64,000 bases of DNA from Candidatus Parcubacteria bacterium (GCA_025999335.1 AP024681.1:322565-386564); one strand, 5' to 3'; positions 37,251 to 41,747 are shown, numbered from the stretch's first letter. Notes: generated by a model from the sequence alone, not told the origin. Program-made: numbers and translations.

Positions 37251-37973
37251 TTATTTAAAATTACCACAAGCAAAACCTAAAGTGATAAGAGCATCGGTAT
37301 TTTGTAATTTTAGTAATTTTTTGATTTCATCATCATGCAAAGCTCCGGAGATAACACCACCAATATTTTCGTTTGCTAAGCGTAAGCCGAGGCTTTGCGC
37401 ATAAAGTCCGGTTTCAATAAGGATGAATCTACCACCGCGTTCACCGTATTTATTAACAGTTCTTTCAGGAATAGCGACAAAAATAAAAAATACCGCGGGT
37501 TCTCCTTCTAATTCTAAGCCAAAGAATTCTTTAATTTCATTCCATTCAGGGCAATTTGTTACTATTGAGAGAGAATGATTGTCGGCATTATAGTAGACGA
37601 TTTTTTTGTTTAATTTGCTTTTAACATTAAATAAACAAGCAAAAACTTCAATAGGATATTTGCCGCCAGCTGATGGTAATAATCTTTTTGTTGAATTTTG
37701 TTGAGCAAAAGCATAAAACAATGACCCTAATTGTTTTTCTGAGATAGGCACGCTAGAAAATTCTCTAGTACTTTTTCTTTGAGACATTATATAGGCTAGA
37801 CGATCTTTAGGCTTTTTTAAAAATAAATCTTCACTAGGGTAAAAAATTTGGGGTATGGTTTTAAAAGTTCGAGCATCTTCTATGAGATTTTTGATTAATT
37901 TTAAAGATGTTTGCTTGTTTAGTTTAGAATTTTCCCAGAACAACCTAAAAAGATCTGCTTTGTTTTCGTCCAT
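37251..37973 (-). CDS. SagB-type FMN-dependent dehydrogenase (TOMM azoline oxidase, McbC/SagB family)
   Basis: 240 aa with a nitroreductase-fold pattern. Carries RKSTREF, LLPSAGGKYP and NKYGERGGRFILIETG (Lys-Tyr motif). Sits 4 nt downstream of the YcaO gene. Confidence 0.8.
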   Translation of the reverse strand: MDENKADLFRLFWENSKLNKQTSLKLIKNLIEDARTFKTIPQIFYPSEDLFLKKPKDRLAYIMSQRKSTREFSSVPISEKQLGSLFYAFAQQNSTKRLLPSAGGKYPIEVFACLFNVKSKLNKKIVYYNADNHSLSIVTNCPEWNEIKEFFGLELEGEPAVFFIFVAIPERTVNKYGERGGRFILIETGLYAQSLGLRLANENIGGVISGALHDDEIKKLLKLQNTDALITLGFACGNFK

Positions 37974-37977
37974 TGTT

Positions 37978-39234
37978 TTATCCTAAAGGATGAGGCAATT
38001 TATTTGGAAATTCGACTTGATTAACTAAATCAGGATATCGCCATTTTACATCTGCTGTCCGTCCACCAAGAAAAGGAGCTCGTTCATCGCCGTGAAGCAA
38101 AGATAGCTCTGGAGATAAAACTCTTATTACATTTAAACCAGTTTCACGCACTTCGTCAATGGTTATATCACGATAAAATAGTCTGATGTTTTGTTCTTTT
38201 AATTGTTTAATTAAATTTGTTAAAATTTCAATTGTGTTAGTAGCTTTATTTTCTTGGGCTTGTTTTTGATATGAAAATCGTTTTTTTAACAAGGGAGTTT
38301 TGTGCCATAAGTGTGGATAAAGAGTATAGTAAACGGCATGTTTGTCAAAATCAACAATATCTTCAATTTTATTAAGTTTTAAATCTCTATTATAAAGGCT
38401 ATAAAATCCAGCAAAAATTACCCCTTGAATCCATTCAAGATATGCTTTTTCAATGGCTTCTTCATAAGTTGGTCGACAAGCAACGCCCATTGAAATTCGT
38501 TTTTTATTTCTTAGCGGCAAATGACCACAAACAATAACAACAGGATGAGGATTCCATTGTTGAGTTATATCAAAACAGAAAATTTCGCCACCCTTTTTTA
38601 AAACAGGATTTGTATATTTTTCATCAAGCTTGATTTCTCTGCCGCCTAAGGAATTAAGCCAATAAACAGTTAAGGCATCTCTTTCTAAGACTTCTTGAAT
38701 CCCCAACAATAAAGCATTGAACTTATTAAAATGAGCCGCTAACCCAGTTGACGTTGAGGGAAGAAAAGCTTTGTTAGATTTTGTGCCTAACCCAATTAAT
38801 TCTTGCGGGACCCAAAATTTTTCGTTATTATACACCGAATAAACTTCGCCAAAAAATGCTTCTTTAATATCAAATTTTTCCCAAGGAAAATTTTTGTTAT
38901 TATACTGTTTTTCTAAAAAAAGAGAAAATTGATCATGGGTAATTATTTTTTCATTTTTTATTTCTGATAATTTTTTAACTGGAAAATTTATTAAAAATGC
39001 CGAATATCTTTCCATAGCTTCAGCAATAGCACTAATAGTTGCTATTTGTTCATCTTGGTTGATCCCACCACTGGCTGATCTCCATGCTTCAATGGAATTT
39101 TCAGGTACAGAAACATTGGCTATATTTTCAATATCTGCAAAAGTGTTTTCAACTTTTTGAGGCGGAAGAACAATCCCGCAACGAAAACTTGTCGCTTTTT
39201 GTAAAACATATTGATTTAAAGTTTTTTTAAACAT
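37978..39234 (-). CDS. YcaO-domain cyclodehydratase (SagD/McbD-like)
   Basis: 418 aa. Carries the YcaO ATP/Mg motifs AIAEAMERYS and GIQEVLERDA, plus TSTGLAAH and a Pro-rich C-terminus ..FPNKLPHPLG like azoline-forming YcaOs. Confidence 0.85.
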   Translation of the reverse strand: MFKKTLNQYVLQKATSFRCGIVLPPQKVENTFADIENIANVSVPENSIEAWRSASGGINQDEQIATISAIAEAMERYSAFLINFPVKKLSEIKNEKIITHDQFSLFLEKQYNNKNFPWEKFDIKEAFFGEVYSVYNNEKFWVPQELIGLGTKSNKAFLPSTSTGLAAHFNKFNALLLGIQEVLERDALTVYWLNSLGGREIKLDEKYTNPVLKKGGEIFCFDITQQWNPHPVVIVCGHLPLRNKKRISMGVACRPTYEEAIEKAYLEWIQGVIFAGFYSLYNRDLKLNKIEDIVDFDKHAVYYTLYPHLWHKTPLLKKRFSYQKQAQENKATNTIEILTNLIKQLKEQNIRLFYRDITIDEVRETGLNVIRVLSPELSLLHGDERAPFLGGRTADVKWRYPDLVNQVEFPNKLPHPLG

Positions 39235-39270
39235 CGCTATTAATATTTATTCTTATAATGCTTCTTTAAA

Positions 39271-39324
39271 ATTAATCAATAATTTTTTGTTTTTTATAAT
39301 TGCGTAGCATTATTATTGATTAAT
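39271..39324. repeat. 13-bp perfect inverted repeat in the C-protein/YcaO spacer
   Basis: ATTAATCAATAAT (39271-39283) and ATTATTGATTAAT (39312-39324), separated by 28 nt. Confidence 0.6.
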
Positions 39325-40189: not shown

Positions 40190-40308
40190 TTTTAAAAATT
40201 ATTTTTTTAAACAATACTTAAATAAACGACAGGTCTAAAAGTTGTCTTGAATATATTTTAAACAATTTTTAAATTTTTTGTAAAAAATATCCCAAACTTT
40301 AACTACCT

Positions 40309-40983
40309 TTAATATTCTGTTTTGCGAGTTTTTAAAATAAGTTTTATTATATAAATAAAACCAGCAATTACTATCCCGCCAGTCGCTATTAACCAGATAA
40401 GTGCATAGTAAAATAAATAATCAAGATATTTATAAACTATCTTCGGAACAACGACAATAGAAGCAAAAAATTCTACAACTACCGAAAGAATTAAAAATAT
40501 TAAACTAAATATTATACGGATAATAAAGGAACGTTTTATTTTTTTTAAAAAATCATATTTTTTATAGAAACCATAAAAGCTTAATTTTATAAATTTTATA
40601 AATATAAATGCAACTCCTATTACTACGATAAATAATATAAAAAATGGGATAGGAAAATAAGAATTAGAATATAATGCTTTCTCGATCATTGCCTGAACCA
40701 TCAATATGACATAAAATATCCCTATAATAAACAGTGATAATATAACTGGCATAAAAAACCCAAATAAATAAGCAGTTCTTGTTTCTTTTGTTTGATTTGA
40801 GGATTCTGTTTCCTCTAATTGCTGTTTTTTAACTAAATTACTTAAATTTCTGCCTGATAAGTGAGAAATAGTTAAAGTAGATATTAAACACGAACAACAA
40901 CAACAGCAACAAGCACCACAAGTCGGCGTTGACGAACTAACTCTTATTTTTTCATTATCAAACTGGGATATGAGTCGGAGCAT
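40309..40983 (-). CDS. 4-TM membrane protein with N-terminal poly-Cys, streptolysin-S-like segment (candidate TOMM substrate 1)
   Basis: 224 aa. The N-terminus MLRLISQFDNEKIRVSSSTPTCGACCCCCCSCLISTLT has 8 Cys at residues 22-32 (nt 40888-40920). Four long hydrophobic helices follow, separated by basic loops. Confidence 0.75.
   Translation of the reverse strand: MLRLISQFDNEKIRVSSSTPTCGACCCCCCSCLISTLTISHLSGRNLSNLVKKQQLEETESSNQTKETRTAYLFGFFMPVILSLFIIGIFYVILMVQAMIEKALYSNSYFPIPFFILFIVVIGVAFIFIKFIKLSFYGFYKKYDFLKKIKRSFIIRIIFSLIFLILSVVVEFFASIVVVPKIVYKYLDYLFYYALIWLIATGGIVIAGFIYIIKLILKTRKTEY
40915..40983 (-). repeat. 69-nt exact direct repeat, copy 1 (5' end of the Cys-rich ORF)
   Basis: Identical base for base to 41679-41747. 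Identity begins at the ATG, and the 5' flanks differ. Confidence 0.9.
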
Positions 40984-41024
40984 ATTTTTATATAATTCTT
41001 TGTTAATAATAATAAAAAACTATT

Positions 41025-41747
41025 TTAATAAATTTTAACTTCATCGTTGCCATTAGATTTAAAATGTCGATTTTTCAAAATAAAGTTTATAGTTATATAA
41101 ATAAATCCAATAATCGCTATACTGATGATTGATATTAAAGATATTATTATGTAACGCTCTAACAAAGTAAGATTAAATAATAATAGTCCAATAAAGAAAC
41201 CGGTAGCAAAAAATTCTATAGTACCAGCAAGAGCTAATAATCCGATATTGTTAATTATGATTTTGATTAAAGTAGAAAGCTTTGTTGTTTTAAAAAAATC
41301 ATATTTTTCGTTGAAACCATGAAGACTTAGTTTTATAAATTTTATAAGCAGCAATAAAACAATTATTGCTGTTGCATATAATGATGTACCATAAAAGATA
41401 TCGGGAGTAAGAAGATATTTTCCATTTTCAATTATTGTTATAATTGCAGATAAAGTTATTATTATTACAGCGCCCGTTGTTACAGCAAGCAATGATACTA
41501 TAAGTAACATAAAAAAGCCGAAAAGATAAGCGCTTTTAGTTTCTTTTACTTCAATTGATGGCGTTGCTTTCTCTAGTTGCTGTTTCTTAACTAAATTACT
41601 TAAATTTCTACCAGTAATATGCAACACAGCTAGAGTAGATATTAAGCACGAACAACAACATGAGCAACAGGCACAAGGACCACAAGTCGGCGTTGACGAA
41701 CTAACTCTTATTTTTTCATTATCAAACTGGGATATGAGTCGGAGCAT
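41025..41747 (-). CDS. 4-TM membrane protein with N-terminal poly-Cys segment (candidate TOMM substrate 2)
   Basis: 240 aa. The N-terminus MLRLISQFDNEKIRVSSSTPTCGPCACCSCCCSCLISTLA has 8 Cys at residues 22-34 (nt 41646-41684). It is a paralog of 40309-40983. Confidence 0.75.
   Translation of the reverse strand: MLRLISQFDNEKIRVSSSTPTCGPCACCSCCCSCLISTLAVLHITGRNLSNLVKKQQLEKATPSIEVKETKSAYLFGFFMLLIVSLLAVTTGAVIIITLSAIITIIENGKYLLTPDIFYGTSLYATAIIVLLLLIKFIKLSLHGFNEKYDFFKTTKLSTLIKIIINNIGLLALAGTIEFFATGFFIGLLLFNLTLLERYIIISLISIISIAIIGFIYITINFILKNRHFKSNGNDEVKIY
41679..41747 (-). repeat. 69-nt exact direct repeat, copy 2
   Basis: Identical to 40915-40983. Confidence 0.9.

Follow-up and report, generated by a model that had tools for sequence, protein, structure and literature searches.

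The window analyzed here is a 64-kb stretch of DNA from Candidatus Parcubacteria bacterium (KatS3mg097), and its minus strand carries a block of five open reading frames (ORFs), running from 41747 to 37251, in which two related membrane proteins (P1 and P2) are encoded together with three enzymes: a C-protein, a YcaO cyclodehydratase and a SagB-like flavin mononucleotide (FMN) dehydrogenase. The P proteins are probably substrates of these enzymes, with a membrane protein bearing a tethered N-terminal polyazole tract as the predicted product of a self-contained four-gene cassette. The substrate part of this reading, judged on sequence features, is fairly likely, because the adjacency is exclusive, the leader and core stand at residue 1, and the core is purely heterocyclisable and changes in composition but not in character; furthermore, P varies in copy number against single-copy enzymes, and there is no alternative precursor. 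Provided that P is the substrate, attachment of the product to its membrane domain is mildly favoured, because release or export genes are missing from the cassette in every clade and the transmembrane (TM) domain keeps a conserved Pro and Glu. The features of the block are listed below in window coordinates.

41025-41747, minus strand: P1, 240-aa candidate substrate and membrane protein (ORF; family alignment)
40309-40983, minus strand: P2, 224-aa paralogue of P1 (ORF; family alignment; AlphaFold2 model)
39362-40189, minus strand: C-protein, 275 aa, E1-like YcaO partner and probable leader-binding subunit (weak TIGR03882/TIGR03603 matches; profile matches)
37978-39234, minus strand: YcaO cyclodehydratase, 418 aa, with ATP/Mg motifs AEAMERY and QEVLERDA and a Pro-rich end (PF02624)
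37251-37973, minus strand: SagB-like FMN dehydrogenase, 240 aa, with Lys-Tyr in PSAGGKYP (PF00881)
41646-41684, minus strand: core of P1, residues 22-34, CGPCACCSCCCSC, 8 Cys and 2 Ser (translation)
40888-40920, minus strand: core of P2, residues 22-32, CGACCCCCCSC, 8 Cys and 1 Ser (translation)

An original prediction, made by a model from the DNA alone, had named five ORFs of 240, 224, 275, 418 and 240 aa in this block, and all of them are present where it had placed them. The motifs it had quoted for the YcaO (AEAMERY, QEVLERDA, LPHPLG), the dehydrogenase (RKSTREF, PSAGGKYP, NKYGERG) and the C-protein (two CxxC pairs) were likewise recovered from the translations. The composition of the block is unremarkable for the window, with a GC content of about 29%.

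Both P1 and P2 begin with MLRLISQFDNEKIRVSSSTPTCG, followed by PCACCSCCCSC in P1 or ACCCCCCSC in P2, and translation thus bore out the shared start and the 8 Cys within 11-13 residues (residues 22-34 in P1 and 22-32 in P2). When all six frames of the window were scanned, at least 6 Cys per 12 residues were found at these two sites only, against a background of 0.73% Cys in window ORFs of at least 200 aa. P1 opens with a leader (residues 1-21), which is followed by the heterocyclisable core (22-34); an uncharged segment and then a charged linker lead on to the polytopic TM domain. The paralogues are 85% identical over residues 1-60 and 42% identical over the remainder, and their codons 1-23 (69 nt, window 41679-41747 vs 40915-40983) are identical, which suggests either gene conversion or a strongly constrained leader beside a diversifying membrane domain. 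Compared with the orthologue on a related Logan contig (L001), the same codons carry 6 synonymous and 2 non-synonymous changes, and this excess of synonymous changes indicates that the leader is translated and held under purifying selection.

For P2, hydropathy and the positive-inside rule gave four TM helices (about 73-96, 112-132, 154-179 and 194-217), and the AlphaFold2 model gave four long helices (62-106, 112-142, 151-185 and 187-223) behind a disordered leader, both in agreement with the four-helix domain that had been predicted. Confidence in the model was moderate (mean pLDDT 72, pTM 0.46). A Foldseek comparison of the model with the PDB returned no significant match, so the fold gives no hint of function. 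In the family alignment, P2 carries a near-invariant Pro79 and an intramembrane Glu171. Scans with Pfam and NCBIfam found no model covering P1, P2 or the wider P family.

The enzymes had been assigned to the thiazole/oxazole-forming set; the Pfam thresholds agreed with this for the YcaO and the dehydrogenase, but the curated NCBIfam cut-offs were missed by all three. The YcaO passed PF02624 (129.6 bits, cut-off 25.7) and the dehydrogenase passed PF00881 (Nitroreductase, 54.5 bits). Their best NCBIfam matches were to the SagD family TIGR03604 (E 4.8e-54; 183.7 bits, below the curated 219.25) and to SagB TIGR03605 (E 2.6e-18; 66.1 bits, below 78.4), respectively. The C-protein matched TIGR03882, the leader-binding model of thiazole/oxazole-modified microcins (TOMMs) (E 2.9e-6; 27.6 bits, below 36.9), and SagC TIGR03603 (E 3.2e-4; 20.5 bits, below 187.65). 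In profile comparisons with the PDB, the YcaO family matched MusD, TruD, LynD and McbD (McbD at E 2.3e-6), and a profile of 17 family C-proteins matched TruD (E 1.7e-7) and LynD (E 3.5e-4) in their E1-like region.

Residue conservation was assessed in family alignments. Among 35 family YcaOs, E72, E75, R76, E181, E184, R185, P414 and H415 are invariant, and in the C-terminus, FPNKLPHPLG, residues P410, N411, P414, H415, P416, L417 and G418 are invariant or at least 90% conserved. The two CxxC pairs of the C-protein, CLSC and CPIC, supply four invariant cysteines (C178, C181, C253 and C256). The window dehydrogenase shows RKSTREF, PSAGGKYP and NKYGERG in translation; by regular expression, a PS[AG]G..YP-type motif occurs in 50 of 79 family dehydrogenases and Lys-Tyr in at least 40 of 79. 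A Pro-rich C-terminus is a hallmark of azoline-forming YcaOs, and a catalytic Lys-Tyr is a hallmark of McbC-type dehydrogenases (PMC8442711). Judged by profiles and motifs, the window YcaO is placed in a divergent sister clade of the NCBI-defined SagD family, and the trio is read as a standard three-component azole synthetase of a divergent clade.

A search with the single P1 sequence returned only itself, a paralogue in another assembly and one Logan relative, and the idea that P is an orphan protein was discarded once YcaO neighbourhoods exposed a family. The apparent rarity of P is explained by the word-index search and the fast divergence of the TM domain. The window YcaO has many relatives, 35-69% identical, in many phyla. 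Loci were collected with the YcaO profile from species-representative genomes (79 loci) and joined by the window and two related loci, giving 82 in total; their genes were labelled by hidden Markov models (HMMs) and greedy gene calls, single-linkage clustering being too noisy in high-GC loci.

Gene content and co-occurrence were established directly from these loci. One to three P genes lie inside a C-P-YcaO-dehydrogenase cassette in 78 of the 82 loci with this YcaO subtype, and the loci without a P gene are contigs cut beside the YcaO (L010, L014, L075) and one disrupted copy (L071). Every cassette comprises C, P, YcaO and dehydrogenase; two or three gene orders occur, and each enzyme is present in single copy. 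When the search was reversed and started from the P profile alone, three of three P proteins had C upstream and YcaO downstream, with a nitroreductase gene present wherever the contig reached that far; the constant YcaO neighbour asked for by the original prediction was thus almost always seen, from both sides. Carriers belong to at least seven phyla and include Patescibacteria, Firmicutes, Actinomycetota, Myxococcota, Desulfovibrio, Dormiibacterota and Beta- and Gammaproteobacteria. Among them are culturable organisms, namely Stenotrophomonas rhizophila, Achromobacter, Bordetella species, Aromatoleum tolulyticum, Arachnia propionica and Amycolatopsis. In a plasmid collection only distant YcaOs (28% identity) were found, which gives no evidence of plasmid carriage.

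An exhaustive HMMER search of 1.84 billion cluster representatives with the P profile returned 186 proteins at E<=1e-3 and 86 at E<=1e-10. The count of 186 is a lower bound, because the profile is dominated by proteobacterial sequences. Fragments aside, the matched proteins are 140-285 aa long, the match begins at residue 1 in nearly all of the 150 matches listed, and every database name seen for a family member was "hypothetical protein".

The conservation pattern and core composition were read from the same family. The leader follows the pattern M-x-[RK]-L-x-x-Q-F-D, about 10 residues, (A)TPTCG and then the heterocyclisable run, and its motif is kept across phyla. Among 259 unique full-length P proteins the core starts at a median residue of 23, has a median length of 9 and consists of Cys, Ser or Thr to 95%; in favour of the original prediction, homologues almost always carry the N-terminal heterocyclisable patch. 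The poly-Cys character proposed for the core holds in the window and in most clades: 7-10 Cys follow TPTCG or TPTCSS in Patescibacteria, Firmicutes and Actinomycetota, and 8 Cys follow SPKSSG in Myxococcota. It does not hold in Beta- and Gammaproteobacteria (Stenotrophomonas, Bordetella, Achromobacter, Aquabacterium, Aromatoleum), where the core is GGGSTSTTCSSC (GGG-STSTTCSSC) and only 2-4 Cys stand amid Ser/Thr. The conserved property of the core is thus heterocyclisability and not thiol content.

This pattern bears on the possibility that the Cys tract is not heterocyclised and serves as a metal or Fe-S, redox or multiple S-acylation site, with the enzymes performing, for example, thioamidation or acting on another substrate. 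Poly-Cys tracts elsewhere bind metals and are acylated, the enzymes fall under the curated TOMM cut-offs, and YcaOs can act on proteins without forming azoles; indeed, the window YcaO matches the McrA-thioamidation model TIGR03266 at E 6.9e-16. That match reaches 58.2 bits against a cut-off of 365, however, and NF040716 gave 12 bits against a cut-off of 700. A TfuA-like gene is absent from the cassette and from the conserved surroundings in the 82 loci, while the dehydrogenase carries the KY motif and the YcaO a Pro-rich C-terminus. Because the core stays heterocyclisable while its Cys content varies, azole formation is favoured over metal binding or S-acylation, and a non-azole role of the tract is considered quite improbable.

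The alternative that P is not a substrate at all was regarded as scarcely credible. P would then serve in immunity, as a scaffold or in transport, with an N-terminus that imitates a precursor; the true small precursor would be encoded elsewhere or have been missed. Some TOMM families do have precursor genes away from their cluster (for example, the heterocycloanthracins; PMC4603692). Searches gave no support to a separate precursor: apart from the P genes, no Cys/Ser/Thr-rich ORF of at least 20 aa was found in 36800-41900, no candidate small ORF is present in the block, no separate small precursor was found in orthologous or distant loci, and nothing besides the cassette is conserved near it in the 82 loci. 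The original prediction had likewise seen no such short ORF in the three gaps of the block that it named. Leader, core and their position at residue 1 are, moreover, the best conserved features of P, and one to three P copies beside single-copy enzymes are usual for precursors. Among family members, short proteins of 69-107 aa were considered as stand-alone precursors and were not accepted as evidence, since they mostly look like fragments or frameshifted genes.

Most steps of the mechanism by which P would be modified are inferred from TOMM enzymology and the sequence. The leader, spanning the first ~21 residues (M-x-[RK]-L-x-x-Q-F-D ... TPTCG), would dock on the C-protein. Using ATP, the YcaO would form azolines by cyclodehydration along the run of contiguous Cys (or Ser/Thr) at about positions 22-34, and the FMN dehydrogenase would oxidise these to thiazoles or oxazoles. 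The product would retain its polytopic C-terminal membrane domain and present a rigid, hydrophobic N-terminal tract of ~9 azoles on or in the membrane. As for function, a membrane-active role is the best guess, because the tract matches the minimal active unit of streptolysin S; the active element would be kept in cis on the producer's own membrane and might act either there or on a contacted cell.

Downstream of the core, P proteins have 12-20 uncharged residues, conserved to the same degree as the leader, then a linker and usually three or four TM helices. Two residues of the TM domain are nearly invariant across phyla, a Pro where the first TM helix begins and a Glu within a later helix, and they argue that the domain is more than a disposable tail. 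By a simple positive-inside count, the linker would be cytoplasmic in 199 of 257 proteins, which would leave the leader and core cytoplasmic or peripheral, or would add one extra span with the N-terminus outside.

Several observations weigh against the tethered polyazole. All three enzymes score under the curated NCBIfam SagB/SagC/SagD cut-offs, and the clade could therefore have a different chemistry. For slow cytoplasmic enzymes it would be difficult, on kinetic grounds, to modify the N-terminus of a membrane protein that is inserted co-translationally. Conservation of the TM domain is poor (14% mean column identity), as expected of a mere carrier, and the Gly or Gly-Gly conserved just ahead of the core (in TPTCG and AAGGG) is reminiscent of leader-cleavage sites; together, fast TM divergence and the pre-core glycines fit cleavage by proteases encoded elsewhere, and housekeeping proteases encoded outside the cassette could process P. 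Frameshifts in related loci (see below) could mean a dispensable or decaying cassette. One 69-aa protein, P0272, consists of leader, core and uncharged segment without a TM domain, and it could be either a fragment or a genuine stand-alone precursor bridging the family to classical TOMM peptides.

The main rival reading, release by cleavage, which the original prediction had also named, takes P as a pro-toxin. Once the core is heterocyclised, proteases encoded elsewhere would cut on both sides of it, following ...TPTCG or ...AAGGG and again beyond the hydrophobic segment, freeing a streptolysin S-like polyazole peptide. The TM domain would then only carry P to the membrane or to export, or confer immunity in cis. 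This account is a possible but unlikely one. Its leader length, pre-core Gly and ~9-residue heterocyclisable tract resemble SagA, the streptolysin S model TIGR03602 gives sub-threshold matches, the N-terminus is conserved beside a fast-diverging TM domain both between the paralogues and family-wide, and several paralogues per locus are typical of toxin precursors. On the other hand, no protease, exporter (ABC exporters included) or immunity gene, of the kind that sagE-I provide for streptolysin S, is conserved with the cassette in any clade among the 82 loci. Such genes are encoded in all described streptolysin S-like clusters (PMC4603692). The persistence of the Pro and the intramembrane Glu across phyla, and of the uncharged post-core residues at the level of the leader, would also be unexpected for a pro-toxin, and the tethered product is therefore preferred.

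A bolder version of the tethered product, put forward only as a doubtful suggestion, is that heterocyclisation builds part of the membrane protein itself. The polar tract would become a rod of ~9 azoles, rigid, conjugated and hydrophobic, with a length that by rough estimate is close to the thickness of a bilayer, and would lengthen the post-core segment into a membrane span, or into a re-entrant element against the 3-4-helix bundle with its intramembrane Glu. On their own, the 12-20 uncharged residues are too short to cross the membrane. If this were true, P would represent the first natural class of azole-modified integral membrane proteins, with a function that could rest on the polyazole, for example contact-dependent membrane permeabilisation or ion or electron conduction.

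Among known systems, the streptolysin S-like cytolysins (SagA with SagBCD; clostridiolysin S, listeriolysin S) are the closest comparison. As the cassette is predicted to do, they use a C-protein that is a separate polypeptide, together with a YcaO (D) and an FMN dehydrogenase (B), and their precursors have a leader of ~22 residues, a Gly and then about 9-10 contiguous, Cys-dominated heterocyclisable residues. Molloy et al. identified an N-terminal poly-heterocyclisable (NPH) region as the smallest cytolytic unit and proposed that it defines the streptolysin S-like toxins (PMC4513790), and the rule of Cox et al. for such precursors is a Gly plus a contiguous heterocyclisable run (PMC4603692). 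Regions of the NPH type are present in the window as CG-ACCCCCCSC and CG-PCACCSCCCSC. The resemblance to SagA that had been predicted was therefore upheld in layout, but not by the model cut-off: TIGR03602 matched P2 residues 10-35 below threshold (E 0.0036; 17.2 bits vs 35), and among 49 family members it gave sub-threshold matches (E <= 0.01) in 9, with a best E of 1.5e-4 and the cut-off reached by none.

The differences from the streptolysin S group lie mainly in the substrate and in the accompanying genes. SagA-type precursors are soluble, ~50 aa long, cleaved and exported, whereas here the leader-core module heads a polytopic membrane protein of 140-310 aa. The CaaX protease/immunity gene (sagE), sagF and the ABC exporter (sagGHI) are missing from the present cassette, the three enzymes and P stay under the curated family cut-offs, and the family reaches Patescibacteria, Proteobacteria, Myxococcota and Actinomycetota. 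Propionisin (Cox et al. 2015) was considered for the Propionibacteriaceae members and rejected, since its precursors are 60 aa long with different leaders and its clusters contain ABC transporters and CaaX proteases.

The microcin B17 synthetase (McbBCD), which makes a linear azol(in)e-containing peptide (LAP), is built, as the synthetase of the cassette is predicted to be, from an E1-like Zn-binding scaffold, a YcaO and a KY-motif dehydrogenase. Its precursor McbA is a soluble protein of 69 aa with scattered Gly-Ser/Cys sites, encoded in an operon with export and immunity genes (PMC6722960), whereas the core studied here is contiguous and its substrate is a membrane protein. TOMM precursors of the NHLP and Nif11 types resemble P in being far longer than the classical ~50 aa; their extra length is a soluble N-terminal leader domain and their core is C-terminal (PMC4603692), while P has its leader and core at the very N-terminus and owes its extra length to a membrane domain at the C-terminus. 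McrA thioamidation (YcaO-TfuA) and the E. coli YcaO/uS12 system are precedents for a YcaO acting on a folded full-length protein; these differ in installing a single thioamide or assisting methylthiolation, without an E1-like partner or a SagB dehydrogenase.

The original prediction had regarded the architecture as unfamiliar. Neither the QFD nor the TPTC motif occurs among the precursors tabulated in the 2015 TOMM census (PMC4603692), and full-text searches, outside which subscription journals largely lie so that an earlier mention there is possible, found no description of the P family. Unfamiliarity was accordingly upheld in that no published account was found, but the architecture is not peculiar to this genome and belongs to a widespread family. 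Read from the sequences, the enzymology would be known (TOMM/LAP) and the substrate architecture is one that was not found described. P is probably the first natural family in which enzymes forming azoles in peptides that are made by the ribosome and modified after translation (RiPPs) target integral membrane proteins.

The known products of YcaO azole systems are small peptides, natural products that are secreted or stay inside the cell, and tools for genome mining seek short precursor ORFs beside azole-forming YcaOs. The present cassette indicates a conserved alternative with a full-length polytopic membrane protein as the substrate and no release or export machinery encoded, and its recurrence in many phyla suggests an undescribed class of membrane proteins with a built-in polyazole patch. 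If the chemistry were confirmed, ribosomal azole chemistry would extend from peptides to membrane proteins, a YcaO clade whose substrates are missed by short-ORF searches would be explained, and a natural template for installing polyazole tracts on proteins would become available. The culturable carriers make the question directly testable. More speculatively, Patescibacteria live attached to host cells, and a streptolysin-like element held in the membrane or at the surface could bear on host interaction.

Within +/-7 kb of the YcaO in the 82 loci, no gene family besides the cassette is shared across phyla. Encoded in the window flanks are proteins of the TIGR00375 and LytR families, a ClpB-like ATPase, a small membrane protein and a surface protein of 2410 aa; Pfam and NCBIfam scans of these flanks found no ABC exporter, nor a CaaX protease or C39 peptidase. 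Neither PADLOC nor PHROGs yielded a match, and so no tie to known defence systems or phages emerged. A scan for promoters and terminators was uninformative in this AT-rich DNA, where 27 promoter-like and 3 terminator-like sites were counted and 26.7 and 2.1, respectively, were expected. Two features follow the block.

37170-37245: tRNA-Pro, after the block
29647-36879: predicted surface protein, 2410 aa, convergent with the cassette across tRNA-Pro

The surface protein starts with a signal-like N-terminus and contains two peptidoglycan-binding domains, an fn3 domain and CarboxypepD_reg repeats, besides a stretch rich in Thr.

Variation among the related loci was also recorded. In L001, the P gene and the YcaO gene are each broken by a one-base change in an A-run (1380-1430 and 3010-3030), giving products of 168+75 aa (P) and 91+285 aa (YcaO), and the 168-aa product of the L001-type P was found in four samples. 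A frameshift interrupts the C gene of L005 (GCA_041640215.1) at 930-945. These frameshifts reflect either decaying cassettes or homopolymer assembly errors. L014 (CAZHBQ010000152.1, 3 kb) was binned as a Methanobacteriaceae archaeon; its YcaO is 56% identical to that of the window and most like gut Bacilli versions, and the contig is probably a binning contamination and not an archaeal member.

The linker is 50-100 residues of Pro/Ala-rich low complexity in Proteobacteria (L057:9372-9959, L037:9354-9989), and short and Lys/Glu-rich in Gram-positive and Patescibacteria members. P proteins of gut Bacilli (L013:9186-9998, L018:9066-9998; also P0280 and P0300) have an extra C-terminal tail with a zinc-ribbon-like KKCPKCG...N.RCFYCS, which implies a cytoplasmic C-terminus and perhaps an additional partner. 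A gene for a PAP2_3-type (lipid phosphatase-like) membrane protein lies divergently upstream of C in two loci (L085:29-670, L086:2439-3020), and a gene for a 214-aa membrane protein, which may belong to the PAP2_3-type family, occupies the equivalent position in 12 proteobacterial loci (e.g., L030:7776-8420); this neighbour, confined to that clade, hints at a link to membrane lipids. Elsewhere in the window, at 20609-20682, a tRNA-Ile with the anticodon UAU was found, which is uncommon in bacteria, where AUA is mostly read by a lysidine-modified CAU tRNA.

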